64,000 nt of DNA from assembly GCA_035495795.1 (NCBI GenBank), contig DATJFF010000163.1:43114-107113 (forward strand), in the 5' to 3' direction. This DNA comes from Vicinamibacterales bacterium. Its GTDB lineage: Bacteria > Acidobacteriota > Vicinamibacteria > Vicinamibacterales > UBA2999. How positions within the stretch are numbered: position 1 is the first letter of the stretch; each line of letters begins with the position of its first letter. Shown piece after piece: positions 3,210 through 46,899 of the stretch. The position numbers were made by a program, and so were the translations under genes. The notes under the pieces are model-generated. The model had not been told where the DNA came from, searched no databases, and saw only the letters and a program-made list of their open reading frames with translations.

Positions 3210-3295
3210 GATCTGGTGATCTCGTGAGCTGGGGATCTGGAGATCTGATCTGGTGATCTGAGGATCTTTCGATCTATCTGGTGATCTTGTGATCT
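3210..3295 (+). repeat. tandem array of about 11 octamer units (GATCTGGT-like) carrying 10 GATC sites
   Basis: GATCT starts at 3210, 3218, 3234, 3242, 3247, 3255, 3263, 3271, 3283 and 3291, mostly 8 nt apart. The array lies between the groEL stop (3200-3202) and its terminator. Confidence 0.9.
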
Positions 3296-3296
3296 G

Positions 3297-3335
3297 GGCC
3301 CGGCGGCCTTTTGGCTGCCGGGCCTTTCTTTTTTT
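3297..3335 (+). terminator. intrinsic terminator of groESL
   Basis: GGCCCGGCGGCC-TTTT-GGCTGCCGGGCC stem-loop followed by TTTCTTTTTTT. Confidence 0.8.
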
Positions 3336-3483
3336 CCCGCTCCACCCAGCCTCAGGCGTAGTATTCCTTTCGCTCGACTCGGTGCCCTTCATTTCGCGTT
3401 GTACGGGCTGGTCGTTTCCGTTACTAGTCAGCGGGCTTTACCCTCACTCGGCGTCTTGCGGTGCTATCGGAAGGAGAACCCCT

Positions 3484-4134
3484 ATGCGACGTTTCGTGGT
3501 AACCGGAATCCTTGTCGGCCTGCTCGGTTGGATTGCCGCCGTCCCGGCTCAGGCTCAGGACAAGTCGGCACGCGGATCGGTGACCGCGGTTGGCATGGAC
3601 ACCGTCACTGTGAAGGCCGGCGCCCAGGAGCTCAAGCTCACGGTCGATGGGAAGACCGAAATCATCGCCGAAGGCGCGGGGACAGCCAACCGCGCGGCGG
3701 TTGCCAAAGGCGCCGCTGGCGCCAAGCTCGCCGATCTCGTCAAGGTCGGCGAGAATGTCGAAGTCAACTACCGCGAGGCCGGCGGCATGATGCACGCCAC
3801 CACCATCCGCAAGGTGCGTTCGACCGGTGCCGGCGGCGGCGGCGTGTCAGAACCCAAGGCGGCGACCCCGATGTCCAGCGGCACGGTGACCGCCGTGTCC
3901 GGAACCTCGCTGACCATCTCCGGCGCGAGCGGCGGTGGCGGCAAGTTCACGCAGACCTTTACGATCGACAGCGCCACCCACGTCGTCGCCGAAGGTGCCA
4001 GCACCGCCAGCGCCAAGGGCAAGGTCACCATCACCGATCTCGTGAAGAAGGACGACTCCGTCCAGGTGACCTACGTCGAGAGCGGCGGCACGCTCCGGGC
4101 CACCGAGGTCCGCAAGCGCAACACGAAGCCGTAA
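3484..4134 (+). CDS. secreted protein with two tandem ~85-aa repeats (DUF5666-like by pattern)
   Basis: ATG at 3484 is preceded by GGAAGGAG. Signal peptide MRRFVVTGILVGLLGWIAAVPAQA|Q. The internal duplication GSVTAVGMDTVTV...VEVNYRE / GTVTAVSGTSLTI...VQVTYVE is visible. Confidence 0.6.
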   Translation: MRRFVVTGILVGLLGWIAAVPAQAQDKSARGSVTAVGMDTVTVKAGAQELKLTVDGKTEIIAEGAGTANRAAVAKGAAGAKLADLVKVGENVEVNYREAGGMMHATTIRKVRSTGAGGGGVSEPKAATPMSSGTVTAVSGTSLTISGASGGGGKFTQTFTIDSATHVVAEGASTASAKGKVTITDLVKKDDSVQVTYVESGGTLRATEVRKRNTKP

Positions 4135-4160
4135 CCCGCGCGTCGGCGCGGACGACATCG

Positions 4161-4197
4161 GGCCCGGGCACGACATCGTGTTCGGGCCTTGCCTTTT
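4161..4197 (+). terminator. probable intrinsic terminator after the 3484-4134 gene
   Basis: GGCCCGGGCACG-ACAT-CGTGTTCGGGCC stem (with two G-U pairs) followed by TTGCCTTTT. Located at a convergent gene junction. Confidence 0.45.
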
Positions 4198-5282
4198 CAG
4201 GGCACGCTCGGCCGCTCGGTGGATTTCAGGAACTCCGCCAGGTACGGCCCGAACACCTGTGGCAGTGAATGCGTGCCGTGCCCGCGCGTCTCGTCGGAGA
4301 CCGGAATCAGCACGAATCTGCTGTGCGCCACCCTGCCAATCAGGTCCCGCATCATCGGCAGCTCCGGCGGGTTCACGAAGTCGTCGGCGGAGTTGATGGC
4401 CAGCAGCGGCGCCGTGATCTCGCCGAGGTGCGCCGATGGGTCGTAGTCCTCGGACGCCTGAAAATGGTAGATCGTGTCGTTTGCATCGGTCGTCTTCAGC
4501 CGCGTCTTGATCTGATCCTCCAGCCACGCGTCGGCGGCCGCGTGCGTCGGGAACTGTTTCTGCCATTGCAGCGGGACGCTCGTCGCCAGGAGCAGGAACC
4601 CGAGCGCGCTGGCCATGCCGCGCGGCGGCTCGGAGTACTCTCCGCCCTTCCAGGTCGGATCCGTGACGATTGCGTCGACCAGGAGCTTGCGCCAGACGCG
4701 ATTGCGCCCTGCCACTTCGACTGGATTGCTGGCCAGCGGCACCAGCCCGCGCGCGAACGACGGGTACATGTACCCCCACACCCACGCGTGCATCGCGCCC
4801 ATGGACGTTCCCATGATCAGCCGCAGCTCGGAGAGCCCGAGCGCCTCGGTCACCAGCTGGTGCTGTAGCCGCACCATGTCGGTGTAGCGGTATTTCGGGA
4901 AGCGCATGTGCAAGCCATCGCTCGGCTTGCTCGACTGCCCGTGCCCGATGTTGTCGGGAAGGATGATGAAGTAGCGCTCGGCATCGAGCAGCTGCCCCTT
5001 CCCGAACAGACGGCCGGCGTAGTTCTCGGACACGAACCCCCGCCCGCTGCCACCGGTGCCGTGAAGGATCATCACCGCATTGCGGACGACTCCGTCGGCG
5101 TCCTTCCGCGGCTGACCGATCGTGCGGTAGTGAATTCTGACTTCCGCGGCGCGGTCGCCGCTCTCGAACCGCACGTCGCGCGCGATGAAGTCGCGCTCCA
5201 CGGGCGGCGGGTAGCTGGCCTGCGCGACGGCCAGGGACGGAAGGGCGAGGAGAAACGCGAGCGCTTGGATGGTGCGGGTCAC
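4197..5282 (-). CDS. secreted alpha/beta-fold hydrolase/acyltransferase (MetX-like)
   Basis: Signal peptide ...LPSLAVA|QASY. GTSMG nucleophile elbow (LIMGTSMGAMHAW). Overall pattern resembles homoserine O-acetyltransferase-type alpha/beta enzymes. Lies 19 nt downstream of the carrier-protein gene. Confidence 0.75.
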   Translation of the reverse strand: MTRTIQALAFLLALPSLAVAQASYPPPVERDFIARDVRFESGDRAAEVRIHYRTIGQPRKDADGVVRNAVMILHGTGGSGRGFVSENYAGRLFGKGQLLDAERYFIILPDNIGHGQSSKPSDGLHMRFPKYRYTDMVRLQHQLVTEALGLSELRLIMGTSMGAMHAWVWGYMYPSFARGLVPLASNPVEVAGRNRVWRKLLVDAIVTDPTWKGGEYSEPPRGMASALGFLLLATSVPLQWQKQFPTHAAADAWLEDQIKTRLKTTDANDTIYHFQASEDYDPSAHLGEITAPLLAINSADDFVNPPELPMMRDLIGRVAHSRFVLIPVSDETRGHGTHSLPQVFGPYLAEFLKSTERPSVP

Positions 5283-5301
5283 GGCACGAATGTAACCCGG
5301 C

Positions 5302-5538
5302 TCAGGACTTGGGCCGCAACTCCTCCGAAAATTCCAGGATTGCTCGCATGCTGGCGAAGCGGCTGGGGGTGAACGCGTCGGTCGGGACGCGGGCGCCGGT
5401 CGTCTCTTCCACGAACAGCACCAGGTCGAACAGCGCCAGCGAATCGACGACCTCGCGGAGGTCGTCGTCGAGCGTCAGGGTGTCGCGGTATTGACGGAAG
5501 CGGCTCTTCAGGTAGCCGCGAAGCTGTGCTTCATTCAC
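5302..5538 (-). CDS. acyl/aminoacyl carrier protein (phosphopantetheine-binding, DltC-like)
   Basis: 78 aa from the GTG at 5538. Contains a DSL serine motif (VVDSLALFDLVLFVEE). Overlaps the stop of the upstream ligase gene by 8 nt. Confidence 0.7.
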   Translation of the reverse strand: MNEAQLRGYLKSRFRQYRDTLTLDDDLREVVDSLALFDLVLFVEETTGARVPTDAFTPSRFASMRAILEFSEELRPKS

Positions 5539-7009: not shown

Positions 7010-7022
7010 GACGACCGCGCGA

Positions 7023-8372
7023 TTACGTCAGCAATCGCGCGCAGAAACTGGCCATGCTGCTCCACGTATCGCTGGATTCCACCAGCCCGTGAAGCACGGC
7101 GTAGAAGCAGGACGTGAGCACGATTCCCATCACCGACCAGAGGCGGCTGTCTCCGAGGCCCGCGAAGCGCTCGGGAAAGCGGGTCGGCAGGGCCAGGACC
7201 GCGTATATCGCCGCAGCGTTGGCGAACCAGTAGATCAGGCCGGCGACCACGTTGGATACCGAGCTTTCGCCGGTGAGAATATCCGGCGAAATGTGCAGGA
7301 TACCGGAGGTGAGGAGCGCGCCGAACACCGCCAGGAACAGCTGCCGGTGCCGGCGCATGATCGGGAAGAACACGAACGTGATGATCCATTCCCGGGTCAG
7401 GATGTTCCAGCGCTGCCAGTGTTCATTGGGTGTCCGGGCCAGCAGCCAGTAGTTGAAGTTGCTCCGCACGCCGATTCCGAACAGCCGGACGATGCCGATG
7501 AACACGTTGAAGCGGAGCACGATGCCGCAGTAGTACGAGACGTAGTGGACGTACGAGGTCGCGAGCAGTGTGAACCCATGGACCGAGGCCAGCGGAAAGC
7601 GCGCCAGGAACCGGCTGCCGACCGATTGTGCAAATGACGCCGCGAGGGCGATATACAGGGCCCGCATGCCGGCCCAGCGCGTCGCCCGCAGGCGGTCGTC
7701 GCTCGCCGTACGCAGATCGTCGTAGGTGATTGCCGGACAGGTCACGAGACGGCACGAAATGTAGCTTGCGAACTCACGCAGCGACAACCGTCCGCGTGCC
7801 TGGCGGTGCGCCGAATACCAGAGCATCGGCATCAGCACCGGCCAACCGCCCAGGAAGACATCGACGGCGTCACCGGGCAGCAGCCGCGCCATCAGCACCG
7901 TGCACACCAGGCAGAAGCCGGCGACGACGAACGACAGCCGCAAGGGCGAAAGTGGAAGCTGCAGCAGCAGGTAGGTAGTGCCGACCACCGCCGCAATCGG
8001 GAGGGCGGATGGCGCATCGAGGCCGCCGTCGAGAACCGCGAATGGGAGGACCATCAGCGCGAGCAGCTTCAGCCGCACTTCGGTGGTCGAGAAGAACGTC
8101 AGGAGGAATGCAGCCAGCGCGATGGGAACAATCGGCGACAGGTGCGGGAGGCCGGCCAGCACCGGCCTTGGTTCGGGGTGCTGGAGCATGTAACCGCCCA
8201 GATACCGCGCGAGCAGCCAGAAGCGCGGTTCGAGGACGATGATGCCGATGGCGGCGAGCCCGAACCAGAGGAATTCCGAATCCTGGATGCGGGTGGACAG
8301 CGAGGCCGCGGCAGCGAACGCTGCTACGGGCCGGCGCTGGGAGATCGCTTCCGATGACTGCACAGACTGCAC
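7023..8372 (-). CDS. MBOAT-family membrane-bound O-acyltransferase (DltB/AlgI-like)
   Basis: Polytopic 449-aa protein. RSNFNYWLLARTPNEHWQRWNILTREW matches the MBOAT P-NF-N..A.S..EFW.RW(H/N) block. A conserved His follows 37 aa later (SGILHIS). GTG start. Confidence 0.75.
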   Translation of the reverse strand: MQSVQSSEAISQRRPVAAFAAAASLSTRIQDSEFLWFGLAAIGIIVLEPRFWLLARYLGGYMLQHPEPRPVLAGLPHLSPIVPIALAAFLLTFFSTTEVRLKLLALMVLPFAVLDGGLDAPSALPIAAVVGTTYLLLQLPLSPLRLSFVVAGFCLVCTVLMARLLPGDAVDVFLGGWPVLMPMLWYSAHRQARGRLSLREFASYISCRLVTCPAITYDDLRTASDDRLRATRWAGMRALYIALAASFAQSVGSRFLARFPLASVHGFTLLATSYVHYVSYYCGIVLRFNVFIGIVRLFGIGVRSNFNYWLLARTPNEHWQRWNILTREWIITFVFFPIMRRHRQLFLAVFGALLTSGILHISPDILTGESSVSNVVAGLIYWFANAAAIYAVLALPTRFPERFAGLGDSRLWSVMGIVLTSCFYAVLHGLVESSDTWSSMASFCARLLT

Positions 8373-8581
8373 GCTGCGAGGAATCCTTCCCCGGGTCAGG
8401 CAAAGCGGGTTCCGCCGCGGTCGGGAACCGTTCGTCTGGCTTAAGTCACTGAGAAAATTGGGGTTATCTCAGGGTTTGCCGGATCGTGAAACGTCGGGTT
8501 GGAGCCCGGAAGTCAACCTCCGCGGCGATTGTTGTCGGCACATTTGTGTGATTCGGGCCTGAGGCGAGCACCTGACTACCC

Positions 8582-9355: not shown

Positions 9356-9382
9356 CGCGCGAATCTCACCGGGTTCCGCGGC

Positions 9383-10267
9383 TCAGCGGAGCGTGAACGT
9401 CAGCTCGATGGTGATGATCACGGGAACCGGCTGGCCCTGGCGCATGCCGGGAGAGAAGCGCCAATTGCGAGCCGCCTTGATCGCTTCCTGGTCGAGCCCG
9501 AAGATCGGATCCAGCGACTTGGTGACCTTCACCTCACCCACCGAGCCGTCTGGCATCACGATGCACTCGAGCCACACCGAGCCCTGGACCTTGGCGCGCA
9601 TCGCATCCGCGGTGTATTGCGGCTTCACCTCGCGCAGGACGCGAGGCAAGGTGATCCCGGCGCCAGGCCGGAAAGCGCCGCCGCCGGTGCCGCCGCCGTA
9701 GCCGGGCCCGAGGCCGCTTCCGGTGCCAGGGCCGCTTCCGCTGCCGGTACCGGTTCCCGCTCCCCCTCCCGTCCCGGAGCCCTGCGATTCGCTTACGGGC
9801 GTCTCGCTGAGGATGGCACCGGGCAGCTGCTGTTCTGCCGCAGCCATGTTGACGACGGGCAGGTTCATGGCCGGCAGAGGCTCGGGCTCCTCCACTTTGG
9901 GGGGCGTCGGCGCCGGCTTCTTCTCGACCGGAACCGTGATCTTCTCCTTGCCAGGCACCTCAGCAGGACGGGGGGGCTCGGGGCGCTTGTTGCCGCCGCC
10001 ACCGCCACCACCACCCGGCCCTTCAATCGGCAGGAAGACAAGTCGATCGACCTTCAGTTCGGGCTGAGGCTCGAAGACCCTTGGCTCCGGCCGATACTGA
10101 ATCACCAGGATGGCGATCAGCACCATGATCGCGTGCGCGCCGACCGAGGCACCCGCGCCCACCCGCGACTGACGCTCCTCGAGCGAGAAGTGAATGTCGA
10201 TCGGGCGGTCCGGCCGGACGTGGAGCGGCCCTTCCGCTGCGGGCGTCGCGATGGTCGGGTCAGCCAT
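9383..10267 (-). CDS. tonB: energy transducer TonB
   Basis: N-terminal TM anchor, Pro/Gly-rich spacer (PEPPRPAEVPGKEK...) and a C-terminal TonB-C domain (PQYTADAMRAKVQGSVWLECIVMPDGSV...AARNWRFSPG). Confidence 0.8.
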   Translation of the reverse strand: MADPTIATPAAEGPLHVRPDRPIDIHFSLEERQSRVGAGASVGAHAIMVLIAILVIQYRPEPRVFEPQPELKVDRLVFLPIEGPGGGGGGGGNKRPEPPRPAEVPGKEKITVPVEKKPAPTPPKVEEPEPLPAMNLPVVNMAAAEQQLPGAILSETPVSESQGSGTGGGAGTGTGSGSGPGTGSGLGPGYGGGTGGGAFRPGAGITLPRVLREVKPQYTADAMRAKVQGSVWLECIVMPDGSVGEVKVTKSLDPIFGLDQEAIKAARNWRFSPGMRQGQPVPVIITIELTFTLR

Positions 10268-10371
10268 CAGAACAGTGGTCCCACGGCCATTGTGACCGAG
10301 CGATCTGGCACAAACAAGTGCAAAGCCAGCGCCATGCCGTTTTGACGCCTCAGGTGTACATCCGGCTTCGG

Positions 10372-10380
10372 TGCTACAAT
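10372..10380 (+). promoter_or_regulatory. extended -10 promoter element TGcTACAAT upstream of tatA
   Basis: TGCTACAAT lies 47 nt upstream of the tatA ATG. It is part of a 15-mer also found upstream of the ECF sigma gene. Confidence 0.35.
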
Positions 10381-10426
10381 TTGCGTTGAGGTGGCCGCCC
10401 GCCGTCCTCGAGGAGACTCGCTCACC

Positions 10427-19246: not shown

Positions 19247-19277
19247 GAATGCGGAAGAGCGTAACTCTTCCGCATTC
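19247..19277 (-). terminator. perfect 13-bp-stem hairpin between pckA and gatB (possible terminator or processing site; no U-tract)
   Basis: GAATGCGGAAGAG-CGTAA-CTCTTCCGCATTC. It ends 5 nt upstream of the gatB ATG (19241). Confidence 0.4.
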
Positions 19278-19293
19278 TACATGGCCTGCTTTC

Positions 19294-19335
19294 GCCTTGT
19301 GCCTTCTGCCTTGTGCCTTTTGCCTTCTGCCTTTT
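19294..19335 (-). repeat. heptamer tandem array, 6 units GCCTT(C/G/T)T (AGAAGGC in gene sense)
   Basis: GCCTTGT GCCTTCT GCCTTGT GCCTTTT GCCTTCT GCCTTTT. Starts 2 nt after the pckA stop (19338-19340). Confidence 0.9.
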
Positions 19336-19337
19336 CG

Positions 19338-20930
19338 TTAGACCTTCGGTCCCGCGTCCTTGACCGACGCCGGAACGTCGTTCTCGAACGCCTTGAAGTT
19401 CTCGGCGAACATGCGCGCCAGCTTCGCCGCCTGCTGATCGTAGGCGGCGCGGTCGGCCCACGTGCCGCGCGGGTCGAGGACGTTGGCCGGCACGCCGACG
19501 CAGCTGGTCGGCATATCGACGTTGAACACGGGATGGCGCTGGTAGCCGACGTGATCGAGCCCGCCCGACAGCGCGGCGCGAATCATCGCCCGGGTGTAGG
19601 CAATCTTCATCCGGTGCCCCACCCCGTACGGACCGCCGGTCCATCCGGTGTTTACCAGCCAGACACGCGACTGGTGCTTCTCGATACGCTCGCCCAACTG
19701 CCTGGCGTACACGTTCGGATTGAGCGGCAGGAACGGCGCACCAAAGCAGGTGCTGAAAGTCGCGGTCGGCTCGGTGACGCCCTTCTCCGTGCCCGCAACC
19801 TTCGCCGTGTATCCCGACAGATAGTGGTACATCGCGCTTTCAGGCGAGAGCCGCGCGATCGGCGGCAGGACGCCGTAGGCGTCGGCGGTCAGCATCACGA
19901 TGTTTTCCGGATGGCCGCCGATGCCCTCGAGCACCGCGTTGTCGATCAACTCAATCGAATACGCGCCGCGCGTGTTCTCGGTCAGCGACGCGTCATCGAA
20001 GTTGAGCGCGCGGGTCACCGGATCGACGACGACGTTCTCGAGCACCGTCCCGAAGCGGCGGGTCGTGCCGTAGATCTGCGGCTCGGCCTCCGCGGAGAGC
20101 TTGATCATCTTCGCGTAGCAGCCGCCCTCGAAATTGAAGACGCCGCGGTCGCTCCAGCCATGCTCATCGTCGCCAATCAGGCGGCGCTCCGGATCGCTCG
20201 AGAGCGTGGTCTTGCCGGTGCCCGACAGCCCGAAGAAGAGCGCGGTGTCGCCGTTCGGCCCGATGTTGGCCGAGCAGTGCATCGAGAGCACGCCCTGGAG
20301 CGGCAGGACGTAGTTGAGCACGCTGAAGATCGACTTCTTGTTCTCGCCGGCGTAGCTCGTGCCGGCGATGAGGATTTCTCGCTTCGCCAGGTTGAGCGCG
20401 ATGACGACCTCGGAGCGGGTCCCATGACGCGCCGGATCGGCCTTGAACGAGGGTGCGCAGAGGACGGTGAACTGCGGCTGGAAGCCGGCCAACTCCGCCG
20501 CCGGCGGGACGATGAACAGGTTTCGGACGAACAGATTGTGCCAGGCCATTTCCTGGACGAAACGCACCGAGAGGCGATATGCGGGGTCGGCGCCGGCGTA
20601 GAGGTCCTGGACGAAGAGTTCCTGCTGCCCGAGGTGCGCGACCAGGTCGGCGCGGAGCGCGTCGTATTGCGCGGCCTGGAGCGGCTTGTTGACCTTGCCC
20701 CACCAGATGTTTCCGGTGCTGGACGGCTCGTCGACGACGAACTTGTCGTTCGGCGACCGGCCGGTGTGGGCGCCGGTGCGGCAGACGAGGGGACCGTCGG
20801 CGGCGACCACCCCTTCACCACGCCGGATGGCGTGCTCGTAGAGAACTGCTGCCGGAAGGTTCGCGTGGACGGGCTTGCCGGCCCGAATCCCAAGCGCGTC
20901 CAGTCCCGGATCGGCCTGTACCGTACTCAT
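19338..20930 (-). CDS. pckA: phosphoenolpyruvate carboxykinase (ATP)
   Basis: 530 aa. [11 protein letters not shown] kinase-1a motif. Sequence is typical of ATP-dependent PckA throughout. Confidence 0.97.
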
Positions 20931-31470: not shown

Positions 31471-31540
31471 CGACTAGCTACTCCCTGTGCGGCCCCCGGG
31501 GAGGGGCACCAACAGTTAAGTTTACCACGCAGGGGTAGGG

Positions 31541-31616
31541 GGAGGTGCGACAGGTGCCGCTGCGGGAGGTGCGACGGGTGCGGCAGGTGCCGGTGCGAAG
31601 GTGCGACGGGTGCACA
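31541..31616 (-). repeat. about 9 octamer-like units (GGTGCGAC / AGGTGCC on the plus strand)
   Basis: GGAGGTGCGACAGGTGC at 31541, GGAGGTGCGACGGGTGC at 31565, GAAGGTGCGACGGGTGC at 31597. GGTGC recurs about every 8 nt. Lies between the permease stop (31634-31636) and the dksA-like start (31470). Confidence 0.8.
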
Positions 31617-31633
31617 GGAGCGGAAGGTGTTCT

Positions 31634-34216
31634 CTACTCGGCACGGAGCGTCGAGAGCGGTTTGCGCTGGAGGACGTCCCAGCTGGCGCCGATGCCGACG
31701 GCGGCCACGAGCAGCGCAGTGGCCGCTACGCCGCCGATCGTGACCAGCGGCAGCCACCGGAACGGGATGTTCAACGCAAACCGGCTGATCCCCCAGGTGA
31801 GCCCGGCCGCGCCGGCGGCGCCAATCGCGCCCGCCAGCGTGCCCAGCAGGCCGTATTCAAGCAGCAGCACCGTGGTGATGAGCCGCCGGGTCGCGCCGAG
31901 CGTCTTGAAGATGGCCGCTTCGTAGATGCGCCGGAACTTGGTCATGGCGACCGCACCGATGAGGATCAGCAGGCCGCTCAGCACGACGAGCGAACCGACG
32001 ACGGTCACCGCGAGCGTGACGTTGTCCACCACCTTCTTGATCGCCTGCAGGATCTCCCGGCCGTCGATGACCGAGACGTTCGGTGCGACGCCGACGAGCT
32101 CGGCCTGAAGCAGCCCGCGGGTCGTGGCCTCAGCGGGGCCGCGGAAGAAGGCGATCGATCCATGCGGCGCCTGGTCCAGTACGCCGGGCCGGAACACGAA
32201 CATGAACCCGCCGGCGCGACTGTCGGACCACTCCACGTGGCGGACGCTGGTCACTCGCGCATCGATGGAGCGGCCGAGCACGTCGAAGCGCATCGTGTCG
32301 CCGACGTTGATCCTGAAGCGGGTGTGAATGCTCTCCTCGATCGACACCTCGGCGCCGCCGGCTTCGGCGTTCTGGGTTCGAGGTTCGGGGTTCGGGGTTC
32401 CCGATTTGGGGTTCTGGTCATTCCAGAACTTCCCCGCTATGACGCGCTCGTTCCGCTCCAGTTCCGGCCTGTAGGTGACCGTGTATTCGCGCGCGAGCGA
32501 GCCTCGCCCGCGAACGTCCTCGTAGTTCTCCAGCTGGATCTCGCGTCCCTCGACCCCGATCACCCGCGCGCGCAGGACCGGGAGGAGCCGCGGCGGCGCG
32601 GTTCCTGGATCCTGCCTCGCGATTACCGTCTGCCGGACGGCCTCGACCTGGTCGGCCTGCACGTCCAGCAGGAACATGTCGGGCGCGTCGGGTGACGTGT
32701 CCACGGCGAACTCGGAGATGAGGTTCTGCTGGAGCGATCGGACCCCGAGAATGAAGAAGCTGCCCAGGCCGACGGCGAGCAGCACGATGCGCACCTGGCT
32801 GCCGGGACGGCTCAACTGCAGCACCGCGTGACGCAGCGCGAACCAGCGCGATCGCGACAACGGCTTGATCAGCCGAACCAGCAGCGATCCCGCAAGGTGA
32901 AGCGCAACTGTCGTCACCGCCAGCCCGATCGTAACGACCAGTCCGACCCGCCAGGATCCCGCCTGCCAGACCGTGAGGAGGACGAGGCAGATCATGACCG
33001 CGGCAATCGCGACCCGCTGCGCCCAATCCAGCGTGCCCAGGTCGGATTGATCGCGCAGCAGCCGCGACGGCTTGACGTGGCGGATTTCGAGCAGCGGGAC
33101 GATCGCGAACAGCACGGAAATCGTGACGCCGATCGCCAGGCCCTGGAGCGCCGCACCAGGCGTGACGACGTAGTGCACGTCGAGCCCGTTCACTCCCGCA
33201 GGCAGGAGGATCGGAACCGCGGCGACTGCGGCCGCAGCCAGCGCGATGCCCAGGCCACTGCCGGCGATGCCGAGCAGCACGACCTGCGCCAGGTAGACGG
33301 CGAGCAGCTGCGACGACCGGGCACCGATGCACTTCAGCACCGCAATGCTCTTGATCTTCTGTTGTACGAACACGCGCGTCACGCTCGACACGCCGATGCC
33401 GCCGAGGATGACGATGACGAGTCCGACCAGGCTCAGGTAGTCCTCGGCGCGGGCGAAGTCCTCGCCGATGTCGTCCTCGGTGGTCTTGTAGGAACGGACA
33501 CGCGCGAACTGGTTCGCGAAATCACCGCGGAGCGACGAGACCAGCTTGTCGAGCGTCGCGTCCGGCGCCTTGATCAGCCGCTGATACGAGGCGCGGGTCC
33601 CGAAACCCAGCAGCCCTGCCTGCTGCAGCCCGGCGAACGACACGAACACGCGCGGGCCGAAGCTGAAAGCGCCCAGCCGCCGGCCCGGCTCGCTCTCGAT
33701 CAACCCACGAATCTCGAAACGCTGCCGGCCGATCAGCAGCGCGTCGCCGACGTTGACGCCGAGCTGTGCCTGGAGCTCCGGTCGAATCAACGCCCCGTTG
33801 TCGCCCAGCAATTCCGGCGTGAACGGCGCATCCCCGACCAGGACCATGCTCCCGTAGAACGGGAAGCCGGGCTCAACGGCCTTCAGCTCCACCATCCTCG
33901 TCCGCCCGTCACTGCGATCCGCCGCCCGCACCATCGTCGCCATCTCGATCGATTGGATGCTGGTCGCGCCGGCATCCCGCAGGCGGCCGTCGACGGCAGC
34001 GGCAAGCTCTGGCTTCAGAGGTTGGTTGCTCGTCACGATCGCATCGGCGGTAATCAGGGCGCGCGCTTCGCCGGCGAAGGTCTGCCTGACGCTCTGGATG
34101 ACGGAGCGGAGCGCGACAATCGCGCCGACGCCGACGGCGATGCACAGGAAGAAGAACAGCAGGCGTCGCCACGACGTCCGCAGCTCACGGGCGATCATGC
34201 GGGTGATGAAGGTCAT
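31634..34216 (-). CDS. FtsX-like ABC transporter permease, fused double module (YbbP-like)
   Basis: 860 aa with two FtsX-type 4-TM modules. ATGA overlap with the upstream ATPase gene. Confidence 0.85.
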   Translation of the reverse strand: MTFITRMIARELRTSWRRLLFFFLCIAVGVGAIVALRSVIQSVRQTFAGEARALITADAIVTSNQPLKPELAAAVDGRLRDAGATSIQSIEMATMVRAADRSDGRTRMVELKAVEPGFPFYGSMVLVGDAPFTPELLGDNGALIRPELQAQLGVNVGDALLIGRQRFEIRGLIESEPGRRLGAFSFGPRVFVSFAGLQQAGLLGFGTRASYQRLIKAPDATLDKLVSSLRGDFANQFARVRSYKTTEDDIGEDFARAEDYLSLVGLVIVILGGIGVSSVTRVFVQQKIKSIAVLKCIGARSSQLLAVYLAQVVLLGIAGSGLGIALAAAAVAAVPILLPAGVNGLDVHYVVTPGAALQGLAIGVTISVLFAIVPLLEIRHVKPSRLLRDQSDLGTLDWAQRVAIAAVMICLVLLTVWQAGSWRVGLVVTIGLAVTTVALHLAGSLLVRLIKPLSRSRWFALRHAVLQLSRPGSQVRIVLLAVGLGSFFILGVRSLQQNLISEFAVDTSPDAPDMFLLDVQADQVEAVRQTVIARQDPGTAPPRLLPVLRARVIGVEGREIQLENYEDVRGRGSLAREYTVTYRPELERNERVIAGKFWNDQNPKSGTPNPEPRTQNAEAGGAEVSIEESIHTRFRINVGDTMRFDVLGRSIDARVTSVRHVEWSDSRAGGFMFVFRPGVLDQAPHGSIAFFRGPAEATTRGLLQAELVGVAPNVSVIDGREILQAIKKVVDNVTLAVTVVGSLVVLSGLLILIGAVAMTKFRRIYEAAIFKTLGATRRLITTVLLLEYGLLGTLAGAIGAAGAAGLTWGISRFALNIPFRWLPLVTIGGVAATALLVAAVGIGASWDVLQRKPLSTLRAE
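32366..32414 (-). repeat. heptamer tandem array (GGGGTTC-like, 7 units) inside the permease CDS
   Basis: GGCGTTC TGGGTTC GAGGTTC GGGGTTC GGGGTTC CCGATTT GGGGTTC. In gene sense it encodes NPKSGTP NPEPRTQ NAEAGGA. Confidence 0.8.
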
Positions 34217-39643: not shown

Positions 39644-40024
39644 ATGAACCACGCCACCGTCGCCAGCCTCGCCAGCACCCGTTCCTCCAGCCTGCCCGCC
39701 CGGCTCACCTGGAAAGACGCGAATGGGGCCATGCGCTTCACCTCTGTCAAAGCCAGCGACCTCACCGACACCGGCGTCGTCGTGGAATGCGAGAGTGCCG
39801 TGTCGCTGCCGCTGTATCGCCTGGTGCACCTGCAGGTCGAGAAGTCGGCCCGCGAGTGGGTGGAGTTGCCGCAGCCGCTCCGCGACGGACGCGTGCTGTC
39901 GGCGGTCTGGCAGGTCGCGCCGTGCAAGCCGTCCACCGGCACGCCCGGCGGATACGCGCTGCGATTCATGACGCCGCCGGCCCAGGCCTGCGACGCCGCC
40001 ACGATGCGCCGCCGGGCCTCCTAG
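39644..40024 (+). CDS. PilZ-like domain protein
   Basis: 126 aa. SDLTDTGVVVE resembles the PilZ DxSxxG block (Ser to Thr), and the beta-rich pattern fits. The RxxxR motif is degenerate (TRSSSLPAR). Confidence 0.4.
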   Translation: MNHATVASLASTRSSSLPARLTWKDANGAMRFTSVKASDLTDTGVVVECESAVSLPLYRLVHLQVEKSAREWVELPQPLRDGRVLSAVWQVAPCKPSTGTPGGYALRFMTPPAQACDAATMRRRAS

Positions 40025-40034
40025 AGGACCGGGG

Positions 40035-40934: not shown

Positions 40935-41497
40935 TCGTGGAACGACAGATGCCGCCGCTCCGAGACGAAGCGGCCGTCCGGCTCCGGCACGAAGATCAGG
41001 CACTCCTCGAGATCCCCGCCGTAGACGTGCAGGGTCAGCGATGGTGTGTCGGGGCGTGCATTTTCGATCACGTGATGGTCGGTCGGCGGAATCAGGCGGC
41101 CGGCTTCGCCGCTGCCAGCCACGACGGTCTGTCGCGGCTGAATGTTGTAGCGGTGATCGGGTTCCTCGGTGACGTCGTATTGCGTAACCGCGATCTGCCC
41201 TTCGACCACGCCTTCCACGCACCACAGGCCGCCATGGTCGTGCACTGGCGTCCCCTGCCCTGGTCCCCAGGTCATCACGATTGCGGTGTACCGGCCCTGC
41301 GGATCGCGGTGCAGGAGCCGCCTCGCGTAACCGTCCGCACGAGTTGCACGGAAGGTGTCCGGAAGCACGACTCCACCACTGGCGAGCTCATGCTCGAGCA
41401 CGCCTTTCACCGCGCGCGTGATGGCCTCCACCGACCCGGCGTTCACCGCCTCGTCGAGCCGGGCCACGAGCGCCGAACAGAGCTGGTCGGTCTGCAT
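40931..41497 (-). CDS. cysteine dioxygenase type I-like cupin
   Basis: TWGPGQGTPVHDHGGLWCVEGVVEGQI and HHVIEN cupin His motifs typical of bacterial CDO homologues. Confidence 0.7.
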   Translation of the reverse strand: MQTDQLCSALVARLDEAVNAGSVEAITRAVKGVLEHELASGGVVLPDTFRATRADGYARRLLHRDPQGRYTAIVMTWGPGQGTPVHDHGGLWCVEGVVEGQIAVTQYDVTEEPDHRYNIQPRQTVVAGSGEAGRLIPPTDHHVIENARPDTPSLTLHVYGGDLEECLIFVPEPDGRFVSERRHLSFHD

Positions 41498-41505
41498 CGC
41501 GTTCT

Positions 41506-41545
41506 GCCTTCGCCTTGTGCCTTCGCCTTGTGCCTTCTGCCTTGT
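41506..41545 (-). repeat. 6/7-mer tandem array GCCTTC / GCCTTGT / GCCTTCT (AGAAGGC in gene sense)
   Basis: GCCTTC GCCTTGT GCCTTC GCCTTGT GCCTTCT GCCTTGT. Lies 14 nt after the S9 peptidase stop (41560-41562) and 8 nt before the CDO-like start (41497). Confidence 0.9.
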
Positions 41546-41559
41546 TGTTGTTCCCCAGC

Positions 41560-43956
41560 CTACTTCTTCAGGTTCGCGTCGAACAACTTGAGGATCCGCT
41601 TGTACTCATCCGCCCAGCTCGTCGCCTCGATGAACCCGTGGTCCTCGACCGGGTAGACGGCCAGTTCCCAGTTCTCTTTCCGCAGCTCGATGAGGCGCTG
41701 CGCGAGGCGAACCGAGTCCTGGAAGTGCACGTTGGTGTCGACCATGCCGTGGCAGATGAGGAGCGCGCCCTTCAACCCATCGGCAAAGAAAATCGGAGAG
41801 CTTTTCCGGTACGTCTCTTCCGAGGACTGCGGCTCGTCGAGGATGTTCGACGTGTAGGAATGGTTGTAGTGCGCCCAGTCGGTGACCGGACGCAGGGCGG
41901 CGCCAGCCGCAAACGTGTCGGGAGAGGTGAACATCGCCATCAGCGTGATGAAGCCGCCGTAGCTGCCGCCGTACACGCCGACGCGGCGGGCGTCCACGTT
42001 CTGCGACGCCGCCAGATACCCGGCGCCATCCACGACGTCGTCGAGATCGTGACCGCCCATCCATCCGTAGATCGCGGTGCGCCAGTCTCGGCCGTAGCCC
42101 GCGCTGGCGCGGTAGTCGGGATCGAGCACCACGTAGCCCTGCGACGCCAGCACGTGGTGAAACATGTACTCGCGGTAGTACGACGACCAGTAGCGGTGCG
42201 CGTTCTGCAGATACCCGGCCCCGTGCACGAACACCACCGCCGGCCGCGACGGATGGCGCCGGGCGCCGACCATCTCGGGCGTGAACAGACGCGCGTATAC
42301 CATCGCGCCGTCACGAGCCTTGTATTGAATGAGCTGCGGCTCCACCCACTTGAAGCCGCGCCACTCGTCGGAGGTACTCGTCGTCACCTGCGTGGGGGTG
42401 GCGCCGGCCCGGTTCGGCATCAGGAACACCTCGGGTGGACGATTCGACGCTGACGAGATCAGTCCGAGCATCTCCCGGTCCGGCGAAACCGAGGCCTGGT
42501 GCGCACCCGCCGCTGTGGTCAGGCGCTCGCGCGATCCCCCATCGACCGACACCCGGTAAATGTGACGCTCGCCGGGGTGCGCCTCGCTCGATTCGAGATA
42601 GAAGTGACCGCCATCCGGCGAGAGCTCGACCCGATCGATCTCGAAGGTACCTTGGGTAATCGCGGTGCCGGACGGTGAGTCGGCGATCACGTCGACGGTG
42701 TAGAGCTGCATCCAGCCGGTGTGCTCGGCGAGGAACCAGACGCGACGGTTGTCGCGCAGCCAGCCGAGACCGCCCGCGATGTTCCCGCTCGGGCCGATCT
42801 CCCGGACCCAGGCGCTGTCGTGGATCGTGTCCAGCACGCGCGTCTTGCCGCTTGCGGGATCGACGCGGACCAGCCACCGATCGGTGTTGTCGTCGGAACG
42901 GATGCTCGCCACCGCCTGGTTGCCATCGCCCGACAACAGCAGCGATGTCCATCGGACTTCACGCGACGGCTTCGGGGCGGGCGGGGGCGTCGCCGGCGCC
43001 TCGTCCGAGGTGTCCCCCATCTTCGGCCGTGGAATCTCTTGGGCGTCCACGATGCCCTCGAGCCCGGCCCACACCGCCTCCCCGTTCCGCAGGTTGAGGA
43101 TCGCGAGACGTCGCCGATCCTGCGCGTCGCCGACTTTGGTGCGAGACTGAATGTCTTCGGTGTACGCCGACTCGCTGACGAAGCGCGGAACGACGGCCGT
43201 ACGGGACTGCGCCCGTTCGGTGACTAGCAGGTAGGCGTAGATCCCGTCTCCGGATACTGCGGCATCGGTGACCGACTGGCGCTCGGCGAGCTCGAAGCGC
43301 GGCAGCGCCCGTTCGGCCTCGCGCGCTTCCCGCCGCTCGCGGCGGGCGCGTTCCTGCTCCACCCAGTCCAGGATGTGCGCCTCTTCGCGACGCAGCGCCC
43401 GCTGACTGTCGGTCATCTTCGAGTCCGGCCGCTTCTGGGCGACGTCGGTGAGCTGGACGAGCCCGCCGCTCCCGTCGAGGGGAACCAGGAACAGGTTGTT
43501 GTCCCGGACGAAGGTCACCGCGGTCTCGTTGCGGGCCCAGCGCGGCGACGACTCCGCGGCGGTGGTTCGCGTGATGTCGATTCGCCGATTCTCGGTGGTG
43601 TCGATGACAACGATGTCGCCGTTGTCGACGCCGAGTTGCCGCCGCCGGGCCGCGTCCCATTGTCCCGTGGGCAGCGGCGCCGAGCGGCGCTCGTTCTCCG
43701 TCAGCCGGCGCGGCGCGCCTCCGGCCCTGTTCACGACCCACGTCGCCGCCACATCGTCTTTCGGCTGCCGCCATTCGAAGTAGAGCCGCTGCGAGTCACC
43801 GGACCAGCGGGTGTTGTCGGGAGGATAGCCGACGAGATCGGGCCCGCGCATGATGCTGTCTACGGTCAGCGGAAACGAACGGGCGGCGGTCTGCGATTGG
43901 ACGAACGTAGTGAGCGCGACGAGGGCCAGGCCTGCCGCGGCAAGGGGCTTGGGCAT
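41560..43956 (-). CDS. S9-family serine peptidase (prolyl oligopeptidase / dipeptidyl peptidase type) with N-terminal beta-propeller
   Basis: GGSYGGFITLMAM nucleophile elbow and a C-terminal HGMVDTNVH block. Start moved to the ATG at 43956 (MPKPLAAAGLALVAL signal peptide), because the longer track ORF translates the repeat array. Confidence 0.9.
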   Translation of the reverse strand: MPKPLAAAGLALVALTTFVQSQTAARSFPLTVDSIMRGPDLVGYPPDNTRWSGDSQRLYFEWRQPKDDVAATWVVNRAGGAPRRLTENERRSAPLPTGQWDAARRRQLGVDNGDIVVIDTTENRRIDITRTTAAESSPRWARNETAVTFVRDNNLFLVPLDGSGGLVQLTDVAQKRPDSKMTDSQRALRREEAHILDWVEQERARRERREAREAERALPRFELAERQSVTDAAVSGDGIYAYLLVTERAQSRTAVVPRFVSESAYTEDIQSRTKVGDAQDRRRLAILNLRNGEAVWAGLEGIVDAQEIPRPKMGDTSDEAPATPPPAPKPSREVRWTSLLLSGDGNQAVASIRSDDNTDRWLVRVDPASGKTRVLDTIHDSAWVREIGPSGNIAGGLGWLRDNRRVWFLAEHTGWMQLYTVDVIADSPSGTAITQGTFEIDRVELSPDGGHFYLESSEAHPGERHIYRVSVDGGSRERLTTAAGAHQASVSPDREMLGLISSASNRPPEVFLMPNRAGATPTQVTTSTSDEWRGFKWVEPQLIQYKARDGAMVYARLFTPEMVGARRHPSRPAVVFVHGAGYLQNAHRYWSSYYREYMFHHVLASQGYVVLDPDYRASAGYGRDWRTAIYGWMGGHDLDDVVDGAGYLAASQNVDARRVGVYGGSYGGFITLMAMFTSPDTFAAGAALRPVTDWAHYNHSYTSNILDEPQSSEETYRKSSPIFFADGLKGALLICHGMVDTNVHFQDSVRLAQRLIELRKENWELAVYPVEDHGFIEATSWADEYKRILKLFDANLKK

Positions 43957-44000
43957 GCCTTTCACTCTAGCAGGCTGCTGAACTGCGACAGCCTGCGATG

Positions 44001-44070
44001 ACAAGGCAGAAGGCAGAAGGCAGAAGGCAAAAGGCAGAAGGCAGAAGGCCGAAGGCAGAAGGCCGAAACC
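44001..44070 (-). repeat. heptamer tandem array, 9-10 units AGAAGGC on the plus strand (GCCTTCT in gene sense)
   Basis: ACAAGGC (AGAAGGC)x3 AAAAGGC (AGAAGGC)x2 CGAAGGC AGAAGGC CGAAACC. Starts 1 nt after the GNAT stop (44072-44074) and is inverted relative to 41506-41545. Confidence 0.9.
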
Positions 44071-44071
44071 C

Positions 44072-44602
44072 TCAACGACGCTGGTTGCGATACGCCGCAT
44101 AGAGCCGCTGATCGCGGACTTCGCCATACTTGATGGCGCTCTGTCGCAATCGCCCTTCGAGCACGTAGCCGGCTTTCTCGAGGACGCGGATCGACGCGGA
44201 GTTGGACTCGAACGGGACGGCGAACAGGCGGGTCAGCTCGAACTTCGCAAACGCAAAGTCTGTGACCGCCCGCAGCGCCGCGGTCGCCAGGCCGCGCCCC
44301 CAGAACGGCTGGCCGAGCCAGTACCCGATCTCGGCCGAGACTCGTTCAATGTCGTGACCCAGTTGGAGGCCGATGCCGCCGACGACCGAGCCGTCGAGCG
44401 CAATCGCCCACACGCTTTCGACCGGCTGCTGCGCCACCCAGTGCAGAAAGCCGAGCCCATCCACGGCTTCGTAGGGATGAGGAAAGCGATCGCGCAGGTT
44501 GCGGGCCACATCGCGATTGTTCGCGATGCGCACCAGCGGCTCGAGGTCGTGCTCCCGCCACGTCCGCACTTCAGCGCCAGCGATCGGCAGATCCAGCTTC
44601 AT
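44072..44602 (-). CDS. GNAT-family N-acetyltransferase (RimJ/RimL-like)
   Basis: IGYWLGQPFWGRGLATAALRAVTDFAF acetyl-CoA-binding block. Confidence 0.85.
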   Translation of the reverse strand: MKLDLPIAGAEVRTWREHDLEPLVRIANNRDVARNLRDRFPHPYEAVDGLGFLHWVAQQPVESVWAIALDGSVVGGIGLQLGHDIERVSAEIGYWLGQPFWGRGLATAALRAVTDFAFAKFELTRLFAVPFESNSASIRVLEKAGYVLEGRLRQSAIKYGEVRDQRLYAAYRNQRR

Positions 44603-44771
44603 AGGGTCCCCCGCGGCTCGTTCCGTGGTTCGCGTACGAATCTCCCGGCCCTATTGATCGGCCGGCAGGACACGAGAAGTCGCGCGGCGTCAGCAGGGCG
44701 CGTTCGGAGTCAACGAAGGGTGGAACGATCTTCCTGGCAGGCGAACTGCGGTCGCGATCCGGGCGAGACTG

Positions 44772-45632
44772 TCAGCGCGTGCGGCCCCCAAACGTATCGC
44801 ACGACTGAATATCGCCGGACGTCAGACCACGGCGCAACCACTCCACGCGCTGCTGAGACGATCCGTGCGTGAAGCTCTCCGGCACCACCCGCCCCTGCGA
44901 CTGCTGCTGCAGGCGGTCGTCGCCGATCGAGGCGGCGGCACGCAAACCTTCTTCAGCGTCACCGGGATCGAGCCTGTTCTGCTGGGCAGCATAGTGTCCC
45001 CAGACTCCGGCGTAGCAATCTGCCTGCAGCTCGAGCCGGACTGAGAGCTGATTGGCTTCGGTCTCCGACGACTGCTGCTGAAGCCTCGACACCTTCTGGT
45101 TCGTGCCGACCAGGTTCTGGATGTGATGCCCGACTTCGTGCGCCACGACGTACGCCTGTGCGAAGTCGCCGGGGGCCCCGAAGCGCTGGTCCAACTCGCG
45201 GAAGAACGAGAGATCCAGATACACCTTGTGATCGGACGGGCAATAGAAGGGACCGGTCGCGGACGACGCCGATCCGCATGCCGACTGCACCGCGTTGTCG
45301 AACAGCACGAGCACCGGCGGTTGGTATTGCTCGCCTGCCTTGGCGAAGATCGAGGTCCAGGTGTCTTCGATGTTGCCCAGCGTTCTGCCGATGAACTTCG
45401 ACTGTGGATCGTCGCCGGCGGAGCCGGTTGGCACTTCCTCCTGCGCCGGGCCGCCGCCACCGCCTCCAGTCATCTGCAGCAGCGAGAGCGGGTTCACCCC
45501 GGTTATCCACGAGATGACGAGGACGATGAGGATGGTGCCGATGCCCCCGCCGCCGATGCCGACAGGGCCTCCCATCCGCATGCCGCGACGATCCTCAATA
45601 TTGGTGCTTTCGCGCTGATCCTCGAGCCGCAT
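44772..45632 (-). CDS. YpfJ-family putative neutral zinc metallopeptidase
   Basis: MRLEDQRESTNIEDRRG start, one TM segment, and YVVAHEVGHHIQN HExxH motif, characteristic of the YpfJ family. Confidence 0.85.
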   Translation of the reverse strand: MRLEDQRESTNIEDRRGMRMGGPVGIGGGGIGTILIVLVISWITGVNPLSLLQMTGGGGGGPAQEEVPTGSAGDDPQSKFIGRTLGNIEDTWTSIFAKAGEQYQPPVLVLFDNAVQSACGSASSATGPFYCPSDHKVYLDLSFFRELDQRFGAPGDFAQAYVVAHEVGHHIQNLVGTNQKVSRLQQQSSETEANQLSVRLELQADCYAGVWGHYAAQQNRLDPGDAEEGLRAAASIGDDRLQQQSQGRVVPESFTHGSSQQRVEWLRRGLTSGDIQSCDTFGGRTR

Positions 45633-45723
45633 GGCGGTAGCTTATATCGCGGCTGCAATCGCTGCGCCACATTGTCGATCGGGGCGACGCCACCTCGACC
45701 GCAGCCGGCGGTAGAATCGCCAC

Positions 45724-46224
45724 ATGTCGGAAACGGTCGTGCGCGCGACCGGCGCGGCCGTGACCATCGCCTACGCCGCGCTCATCGCATGGCTCGCAGC
45801 GTCGCAGCCGCAATCGATTGCGGAGGTCACCGGGGGCCTTGCTGCCACCGTTGGCGCGTACGAAGTGGATGCGGTCAGCTTCGGGGAGGGACGGCAGATG
45901 TTCCTCCGCGACGAGTTCGAGGCCGCCCGCTCGGCCTGGTCCCGAGCCGATCCCGCCGGCCGCGACCCCCGGACGCAGTTCTACGTCGCCTACAGTTACT
46001 ATCGCCAGGGCTGGGGACGGCTGAGTCACGACGATGCGTTGTACGCCGCGGGACTCGACACGCTGAACCGCGCGGTCGCGGCGGCGCCGGGCGGACGCAT
46101 CGTCGTGTCCGATCCCGAACTGCAGTTGCACACCGCAGACGAGCTCGGCGCCGAGCTGCGTGCCGGGCAGCGGCGCGAGTGGTCGGACCTGAACCCGATG
46201 CGGGTGTTCGGGAGCCGCAAATGA
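45724..46224 (+). CDS. hypothetical membrane-anchored protein
   Basis: N-terminal TM (AAVTIAYAALIAWLAA) followed by a helical soluble part. TAGAAT -10-like element just upstream. Confidence 0.5.
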   Translation: MSETVVRATGAAVTIAYAALIAWLAASQPQSIAEVTGGLAATVGAYEVDAVSFGEGRQMFLRDEFEAARSAWSRADPAGRDPRTQFYVAYSYYRQGWGRLSHDDALYAAGLDTLNRAVAAAPGGRIVVSDPELQLHTADELGAELRAGQRREWSDLNPMRVFGSRK

Positions 46225-46871
46225 CGCCCGCGCGCGAGGCCTTTGCCCTTCCGCTCACCTTTCTCACGGTGGTGCTCATCGGCGCTATCCGCCTCACTAC
46301 GCCCGTCGCGATCGTGCCGCCGACGCTGTTCTCGCTCGTCCTCGGCAGCATCCTGATGACCGTATTCATCCAGAGCGGCACGCTGGATCCCTCGCGTCTT
46401 GTCGGCGGCGACCGCTCGGCCTGGGCCAACACCAACGGGCTGCTGGCGCTGGTGGCGCTGTTTCTCGCCAACGCGCAGGTCATCTCGAGGCTGACGCCTG
46501 ACAGCGGCTTCCCCGCGCTCGTCGTCGGCGCGCTGTTCCTGGTCACGCTGCTTCAACTCGCCGCTGCCGCGCTGGATCGCGTGCGCTGCCTCAGGGTCTG
46601 GGGTGTCACCCTGCTCTCGGCCTTCGTACTCAAGTTCATTGTCGTCGCCACCCTCGCGGGCCCGGCCGACCGCCCGATGGCGCGGGCACTCCAGGCCCTC
46701 GTCGAAGGCCTGACCTTTGGCAACTTTTCGCAGCCGGTGGAACGCGCCGCGGCTGGCTATCTCACCTTCGCGATGCTCGCCGTGTACCTGATGGGCCTTG
46801 TTCTCCTTCCGTGCCTGCAGCACAGCGCGCTGTCGCAGACCAAGGCAGTGCTCCTACCTCCTGACTCCTGA
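46221..46871 (+). CDS. hypothetical polytopic membrane protein
   Basis: ATGA overlap with the upstream gene. About 6 hydrophobic segments. This is only the C-terminal third of the 582-aa track ORF. The stop codon lies inside the heptamer array. Confidence 0.55.
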   Translation: MTPAREAFALPLTFLTVVLIGAIRLTTPVAIVPPTLFSLVLGSILMTVFIQSGTLDPSRLVGGDRSAWANTNGLLALVALFLANAQVISRLTPDSGFPALVVGALFLVTLLQLAAAALDRVRCLRVWGVTLLSAFVLKFIVVATLAGPADRPMARALQALVEGLTFGNFSQPVERAAAGYLTFAMLAVYLMGLVLLPCLQHSALSQTKAVLLPPDS

Positions 46872-46899
46872 CTCCTACCTCCTGATTCCTGGCTCCTGT
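46851..46899. repeat. heptamer tandem array, 7 units CTCCTGA/CTCCTAC (TCAGGAG/GTAGGAG on the minus strand)
   Basis: CTCCTAC CTCCTGA CTCCTGA CTCCTAC CTCCTGA TTCCTGG CTCCTGT at a convergent junction. Confidence 0.9.

Follow-up and report, generated by a model that had tools for sequence, protein, structure and literature searches.

I found that seven tandem-repeat arrays, designated a to g, in a stretch of 64,000 nucleotides (nt) from a Vicinamibacterales bacterium (assembly GCA_035495795.1, contig DATJFF010000163.1, positions 43,114 to 107,113; the whole stretch is called the window below) are probably hypermutable heptanucleotide (7-9 nt) simple-sequence repeats (SSRs), which are typical of the lineage and are placed where the genome tolerates them. 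They would thus be variable-number tandem repeats (VNTRs) of the class called "long SSRs". The properties of this class were all found: a unit of 5-11 nt is repeated head to tail beyond chance, strains differ by whole units, and the arrays are nearly excluded from the interior of coding sequences. Repeats of this kind are already known from Xanthomonas and cyanobacteria.

Heptanucleotide arrays in the window and in related genomes

The arrays were called with Tandem Repeats Finder, while the gene map of the window was made with a home-made codon-usage caller and Pfam scans. All seven arrays reported in the initial annotation were recovered at their places, with 5-12 copies each. Arrays of period 6-9 with at least four copies were absent from 50 Markov-1 simulated windows having the same dinucleotide statistics. 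The arrays are as follows.

Array a, 3210-3297: period 8, 11.9 copies of GATCTGGT, degenerate; between the groEL stop codon (3200-3202) and the groESL terminator.
Array b, 19286-19335: period 7, seven copies of GCCTTNT on the plus strand, reading AGAAGGC in the mRNA; between the pckA stop codon and gatB.
Array c, 31541-31622 (31543-31622 by the repeat finder): about 9-10 degenerate units of 7-9 nt (about 9.8 copies at period 8-9), with a CGCACC core in gene sense.
Array d, 41497-41545: periods 7 and 13, seven units of GCCTT(C/GT/CT) on the plus strand, reading AGAAGGC in the mRNA.
Array e, 44001-44070 (44003-44067 by the repeat finder): period 7, 9.3 copies with 91% matches; 9-10 AGAAGGC units on the plus strand, reading GCCUUCU in the mRNA.
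Array f, 46851-46899 (46851-46898 by the repeat finder): period 7, seven units of CTCCTGA/CTCCTAC.
Array g, 32363-32417: period 7, heptamers of the GGGGTTC type within the coding sequence of a permease, coding a PNPEPRTQN-type loop.

The window originates from a genome of Vicinamibacteria (Acidobacteria subdivision 6), and the closest relatives of its S9 peptidase are found in metagenome-assembled genomes of Vicinamibacterales or Acidobacteriota, at no more than 70% identity. Are such arrays common in this lineage? I performed a repeat scan of 80 fetched loci (numbered with L below) and compared a Vicinamibacterales set of the window and 27 loci (539 kb) with 54 loci (933 kb) of other taxa. 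Among the repeats having at least four copies in the 28 Vicinamibacterales sequences, 48 have a period of 7, nine a period of 8, and eight a period of 9, while any other period occurs at most twice. The period-7 repeats amount to 89 per Mb in the Vicinamibacterales set versus 7.5 per Mb in the other taxa, a difference of about 12-fold. The dominance of period 7 and the contrast in density together indicate that the arrays are a lineage-wide feature of about 7 nt and not a peculiarity of the window. The arrays are probably a genome-wide trait of the Vicinamibacteria lineage. The units found in the relatives include ATTGAGG, AACTACG, CTAATCC, CCAAATT, and CGCACCG, and four consecutive copies of AGAAGGC are present in at least 120 metagenome contigs. 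In a metagenome-assembled genome of Bacteroidota (L063, 12366-12445), 11 copies of TCAGAAA lie about 40 nt after the stop codon of an S9 peptidase homologue. Thus, isolated heptamer arrays at gene ends occur outside the Acidobacteria, too.

Two other features of the window were observed. The tetranucleotide GATC occurs 528 times in the window, as compared with about 196 expected from the base composition; ten of the GATC sites lie within 98 nt at array a (3203-3300), and each unit of some arrays in the relative L007 also holds a GATC. In addition, repeats of period 3, 6, and 18, rich in GCC/GGT, lie at 9676-9776 and 9992-10015 within the minus-strand gene 9383-10267. They are in-frame coding repeats of an ordinary sort and have nothing to do with the heptamer family.

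Copy-number variation between strains

Natural alleles of the window arrays were obtained through exact copies of window proteins in assemblies from other soil samples. The initial annotation had proposed a comparison of orthologous junctions for copy-number variation, and such variation was indeed found: arrays c, d, e, and g differ by whole units with conserved flanks, the comparators being metagenome assemblies, in which repeats can be collapsed or wrongly joined. Array e has 6, 7, 7, 7, 9-10 (the window), and at least 18 units of GCCTTCT across soil samples, with flanks about 99% identical. Among contigs that encode an identical DksA, array c has between about four and about 17 units, and the dksA leader of 70 nt on its downstream side is conserved. 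The spacer occupied by array d has alleles of 62, 64, and 70 nt. Array g is longer in the window by exactly 21 nt (three units, seven amino acids) than in five related contigs, and the reading frame is kept; another locus, L098, is without 13 amino acids at the position of array g. In L082, which encodes an identical GroES, the groEL terminator is kept and there are only two copies of GGGCTCGA in place of array a. Array f is identical in the one comparable contig found, L230. An exact copy of the product of gatB, the neighbor of array b, is not on record, and neither is one of the 154-residue product of the gene at 46902-47366.

These comparisons show that the arrays gain and lose whole units between closely related strains, which is the classical behavior of slipped-strand VNTRs. 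Within a gene, only three-unit (21-nt) steps were seen, and selection allows only frame-preserving steps there. As for the origin of the variation, a short heptamer duplication may seed an array, which would then expand and contract by slipped-strand mispairing in replication or repair.

A few side observations were made on the same contigs. The 70-nt segment that separates array c from the start of dksA (31471-31540), which includes a small hairpin GCCCCTCCCCGGGGGC, is nearly invariant across about ten contigs whose array c varies widely; it is probably the dksA promoter or leader. In L082, the sequence past the conserved groEL terminator (7445-7535) holds a degenerate TCGTCCGCAC-type repeat of period 9-10 nt, which has no counterpart in the window. 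Lastly, two contigs match the window at about 99% identity as far as array e and then run on into unrelated sequence, L091 from about position 840 and L093 from about position 905; this sequence was not found in the window or any other fetched locus. The switch of flanks stems either from recombination at the repeat or from a chimeric assembly that was joined via arrays with a shared unit.

Position, RNA structure, and possible functions of the arrays

The initial annotation placed six of the seven arrays directly by stop codons. The distances that it gave and the names of the neighboring genes are correct according to sequence reads and the gene map, and Pfam scans of the window and related contigs upheld groEL, an ATP-dependent phosphoenolpyruvate carboxykinase, a MacB/FtsX permease, an S9 peptidase, and a GNAT acetyltransferase. 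Array a starts 7 nt after the groEL stop codon, and array b ends 2 nt from the pckA stop codon (19338-19340). Array c lies between the permease stop codon (31634; 12-18 nt away) and the conserved dksA leader. Array d occupies the 62-nt spacer from the S9 peptidase stop codon (41560, 14 nt off) to the ATG of a cysteine-dioxygenase-like gene (41497). Array e is 1 nt from the GNAT stop codon (44072). Array f codes the last six codons and the TGA stop codon (46869-46871) of the gene 46221-46871 and ends 2-3 nt ahead of the stop codon of the convergent gene 46902-47366. It was not mentioned in the initial annotation that arrays b, d, and e are also just upstream of the start of the next gene: about 45 nt ahead of the gatB start (19241) for array b, 45 nt ahead of the S9 peptidase start (43956) for array e, and 0 nt for array d, which touches the ATG. 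AGAAGGC contains no stop codon in any frame, and the mechanical open reading frame (ORF) of the S9 peptidase (41560-44127, minus strand) therefore runs through array e and begins 171 nt upstream of the likely true start, the ATG at 43956, which is ahead of a signal-peptide-like N-terminus.

Are the arrays specific to gene ends? In same-direction spacers of the Vicinamibacterales loci, 15 arrays are nearer the stop codon versus four nearer the start codon, where arrays overlapping the 3′ end of an ORF were assigned by hand. In independent metagenome loci with (AGAAGGC)n, the corresponding numbers are 11 and six. In the window, arrays a, b, c, and e are nearer the stop codon, and array d is tied. 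Many arrays abut or include the stop codon. Thus, a stop-side bias in same-direction spacers stands. In contrast, the specificity for stop codons does not, as spacers between divergent genes (5′-5′) carry arrays just as frequently: in the 27 related loci, a small sample with my own gene calls, arrays were found in 8 of 64 divergent spacers, versus about 21-25 of 311 same-direction and 7 of 65 convergent ones. In at least four of the divergent spacers with an array, the neighboring genes have a high coding score. The initial annotation itself had set arrays equally frequent at 5′ ends against its proposal, and this is the frequency that was observed; thus, the location is a bias, not a rule. 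Since the window has only six divergent spacers, the window alone could not show arrays at 5′ ends.

Only two of the 41 elements of period 7 or 8 lie deep in a coding sequence, and the rest are in spacers or last codons; several arrays overlap only the last codons of an ORF. Thus, the arrays hardly occur outside spacers and the final codons of genes. Purifying selection may clear arrays from coding sequences and from promoter and leader DNA. If so, the arrays would pile up in the DNA under the least constraint; in same-direction spacers, this is the stretch from the stop codon to the terminator or the next promoter. The effects on gene expression would be side effects: array a moves the groEL terminator to about 90 nt from the stop codon, array d provides a purine-rich leader touching a start codon, and array f is the source of a stop codon. 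A conserved position at S9 peptidase junctions was considered and rejected. Arrays are present at these junctions in several genomes, but their units are different and the rate is near the background of about 10% of spacers.

The initial annotation had also noted that several arrays are followed by hairpins. The hairpins concerned are as follows.

3296-3335, plus strand: canonical intrinsic terminator of groESL, with a GC-rich stem of 13 pairs and then TTTCTTTTTTT (the U-tract).
19247-19277, minus strand: hairpin between array b and the gatB start, 14 pairs, no U-tract.
43970-43996, minus strand: hairpin between array e and the S9 peptidase start, modest, eight pairs, in the centroid structure.

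The claim is true of array a, which has a canonical terminator, and of array b, which has a strong stem; the whole spacer of array b folds at -33.6 kcal/mol (z = -6.4), and its hairpin is absent from the list of terminator-like structures of the window. For array e, there is only the modest stem, and the whole spacer folds no better than shuffles (z = -0.19). Arrays b to f themselves are unstructured, folding no better than shuffles. The layout of an intrinsic terminator (a GC-rich stem-loop and a U-tract) was not found in the arrays themselves; only the separate hairpin at 3296-3335 qualifies. No inverted partner was found for any of the seven window arrays, all of which are single. The whole window gave no match to Rfam 15 families at the gathering score, and tRNAs were not found in it.

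In the relatives, an array is often accompanied by its reverse-complement array 10-70 nt away, and the folded hairpins have energies of -42 to -138 kcal/mol. Examples of such inverted pairs are as follows.

L003, 20430-20538: inverted pair.
L025, 18195-18343 and 19331-19434: inverted pairs.
L072, 12396-12481: inverted pair.
L002, 17511-17733: inverted pair.

These pairs raise the possibility that the arrays, alone or as an array and an inverted array, are functional elements of gene 3′ ends that act on transcription from both directions by pausing or terminating it, or that protect the 3′ ends of mRNAs, like REP/BIME elements or bidirectional terminators. About 20 of 22 inverted pairs are in same-direction or convergent spacers. 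Their arm rich in purines and A is 5′ and their arm rich in pyrimidines and T is 3′ on both strands, which is the layout of a bidirectional terminator, and the stop-side bias in same-direction spacers also fits such a function. However, the window arrays are all single, and arrays b to f are unstructured. A separate canonical terminator follows array a at groEL, and this terminator is retained in a relative that lacks the array. Per spacer, arrays are equally frequent between divergent genes; their copy number and presence vary freely between close strains; and G-rich units such as GGGATTC give no U-rich tail. Thus, a 3′-end function is unlikely to explain the arrays.

The initial annotation further suggested that several units are akin to the Shine-Dalgarno/anti-Shine-Dalgarno pair, with ribosome binding or release in 3′ untranslated regions among the possible roles. 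The arrays would then be mimics of the pair that bind, release, or recycle ribosomes. Some units do agree with this proposal: GGTGATC in array a is a 7-nt match to the complement of the canonical tail of 16S rRNA, array d, which reads AGAAGG in mRNA sense, touches a start codon and might be its ribosome-binding site, and the minus strand of array f reads AGGAG. It was assessed by the longest common substring of 54 units (tripled, both strands) with AGAAAGGAGGTGATCC, as compared with 5000 random heptamers; this is the canonical 16S tail, taken because the window holds no rRNA. A match of at least 5 nt to the tail or its complement was found for 16.7% of the units versus 11.9% of the random heptamers, which is no meaningful enrichment, and the mean longest match was 4.0 nt versus 3.5 nt. 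The GCCTTCT family occurs in both orientations relative to transcription, being AGAAGGC in the mRNA of arrays b and d and GCCUUCU in that of array e, and the split between the two orientations in metagenome loci is 15 versus eight. Most units of the relatives do not resemble Shine-Dalgarno sequences, and purine-sense arrays are mostly far from the next start codon. A GGAG, GAGG, or AGGA core lies within 25 nt upstream of about 15% of genes versus a background of 5-7% (334 confident genes with crude starts, window and 27 loci). The Shine-Dalgarno signal of the lineage is therefore weak. These results do not bear out the proposed kinship, and ribosome mimicry is a very improbable explanation. 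The sole local relevance to ribosome binding is that the purine-rich units of array d form a leader touching a start codon. The arrays are without a dedicated ribosome-related function and reveal no new ribosome-related element.

Several observations weigh against simple-sequence repeats that arise by slippage and settle in free DNA. First, units are shared. Of the unit pairs within a genome, 23.6% differ by at most one mismatch, while the share is 6.7% for pairs between genomes and 2.2% for pairs of random heptamers (permutation p = 0.001), and L025 has the same 14-nt higher-order unit at two loci (4974 and 19331). Since unlinked loci of one genome share units, pure neutral slippage is insufficient. 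Second, the arrays have a polarity which slippage does not explain. In the inverted pairs, the purine-rich arm comes first in 36 of 38 cases and the G-rich arm in 33 of 38; each of the 21 AGAAGGC-type pairs, which lie at unrelated loci, has the order 5′-(AGAAGGC)n...(GCCTTCT)n-3′; and single arrays have the same polarity relative to the nearest gene boundary, whether start or stop (Fisher p = 0.001). Third, slippage leaves the preference for 7 nt unexplained, and many arrays are within about 4 nt of a stop codon, which is tighter than a simple model of free DNA predicts. In addition, the gene starts, which come from my own codon-usage caller, are imprecise. The sharing of units between loci may be due to recombination or gene conversion between arrays, or to a unit-specific bias of slippage. 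Unit sharing and polarity leave room for recombination between arrays, hairpin-templated copying, or selection (e.g., for bidirectional termination).

Might a dedicated process have made and spread the arrays? A unit-specific DNA-binding protein, a recombinase, or a template switching that copies arrays and creates inverted partners could form a selfish or protein-platform system. The sharing of units within and also between genomes beyond chance, the strict polarity, the many metagenome contigs with (AGAAGGC)4, and the different flank past array e in two contigs all speak for such a process, as do the higher-order patterns common to unlinked arrays. Besides the case of L025, window arrays b, d, and e share GCCTTCT, and arrays b and d also share a GT/CT alternation. 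On the other hand, no gene associated with the arrays was found, a single genome holds many different units, and the alternative flanks may be chimeras of assembly. A mobile-element signature was looked for and rejected, as neither common flanks or flanking motifs nor terminal repeats nor target duplications were found among arrays of one unit. I consider a dedicated process quite unlikely, less likely than a 3′-end function. A bolder and equally doubtful idea is that, in Vicinamibacteria and by extension in Xanthomonas and cyanobacteria, the arrays do not come from passive slippage but from a process of constrained polarity, by which specific units are copied from spacer to spacer and inverted pairs are built with the purine arm first. 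The pairs would then be bidirectional transcription barriers (a hairpin or an R-loop) at gene boundaries, and the single arrays of the window would be half-elements.

Comparison with known repeats and significance

The repeats of the window most resemble the heptamer arrays of Xanthomonas (GGGAATC) and Nostoc/Anabaena (GGGGAYT), which are about 90% intergenic and occur on both strands (Rehm et al. 2015, PMC4692102). Those arrays are on average 28 nt from the upstream gene versus 160 nt from the next one, form many convergent inverted pairs, and differ in length between close relatives; their G-rich strand is the coding strand downstream of genes and the non-coding strand upstream of genes (PMC4692102). 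The 7-nt period, the intergenic location on both strands, the bias to the end of the upstream gene, the length variation, and the polarity are all common to the arrays described here. Inverted pairs with the same polarity are abundant in the relatives and absent from the window. In contrast to Xanthomonas and Nostoc, several unrelated unit families coexist per genome (GCCTTCT, CGCACC-type, CTCCTGA, GATCTGGT, and GGGGTTC), divergent spacers are not depleted of arrays (8/64, in the small sample with my own gene calls), and the phylum is Acidobacteriota. Moreover, the units of arrays a, b, c, d, e, and f are without a GGG tract, which would enable four or more units to form a G-quadruplex and is present only in array g (GGGGTTC) and some relatives (L008, GGGATTC). 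As most units here lack the tract, a G-quadruplex cannot be the common denominator. Such heptamer loci are used in schemes for strain typing of Xanthomonas; apart from this use as VNTR markers, no later functional study of the Xanthomonas repeats was found in the literature.

Heptanucleotides are the most abundant class of long SSRs (5-11 nt) in many bacteria, according to the summary of Mrazek, Guo and Shah (2007) in PMC4679880. In the summaries of the same work in PMC4679880 and PMC4692102, long SSRs are typical of large, high-GC, non-host-adapted genomes, polymerase slippage is proposed as their cause, and units whose length is not a multiple of three are excluded from coding sequences. The dominance of heptamers and the near-absence of arrays from the coding interior are the same here. 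Acidobacteria are not among the ten genomes richest in 5-11-nt repeats, so far as these summaries tell. Reports of such arrays in Acidobacteria were not found in the literature.

The initial annotation likened the arrays to the heptameric STRR repeats of cyanobacteria, whose units are CCCCAGT, TTGGTCA, and CAACAGT. The likeness is apt, as both are tandem heptanucleotides in non-coding DNA with several unit families per genome, although these three units are not among the arrays listed for the window and the scanned loci, and the host belongs to Acidobacteriota. The STRR heptamers are known from heterocystous cyanobacteria, including Calothrix PCC 7601, as cited in PMC4692102. The TAACTGA direct repeats of marine Beggiatoaceae, some cyanobacteria, and Bacteroidetes consist of one unit, mostly in the forward direction, a few nt upstream of start codons (MacGregor 2015, PMC4679880). 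They share with the present arrays the intergenic location of heptamers, insertions and deletions in 7-nt steps between strains, and a scattered phylogenetic distribution, while the stop-codon bias, the mixed orientation, and the many units are different here.

The other analogy drawn in the initial annotation was to enterobacterial REP elements. A REP unit is an imperfect palindrome of about 35 nt that can form a stem-loop of its own and is associated with RAYT transposases. The arrays are like REP/BIME elements in being multi-copy, intergenic, and often at gene 3′ ends, and the paired arrays of the relatives form hairpins. However, the window arrays are head-to-tail units of 7-8 nt; with no palindromic unit, no inverted repeat at the arrays, and a folding of arrays b to f like that of shuffles, the analogy fails for them. 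The phase-variation SSRs of Haemophilus and Neisseria have units of 1-5 nt (some are heptamers) and lie in promoters or the 5′ coding sequences of surface-antigen genes. A copy-number change driven by slippage would be common to both, whereas the neighbors here are housekeeping genes (groEL, pckA, gatB, and dksA) and the arrays are mostly at gene ends.

The position bias, the inverted pairs, and the polarity known from Xanthomonas are thus also found with units unable to form G-quadruplexes, which argues against the quadruplex explanation and narrows the cause. The long-noted excess of 7-nt repeats now reaches a further phylum. In soil, Vicinamibacteria rank among the most abundant bacteria, and they are seldom cultured. 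Their heptamer arrays are a likely cause of contig breaks and chimeras; being dense and variable between strains, they are also ready-made VNTR markers for strain tracking in soil metagenomes.

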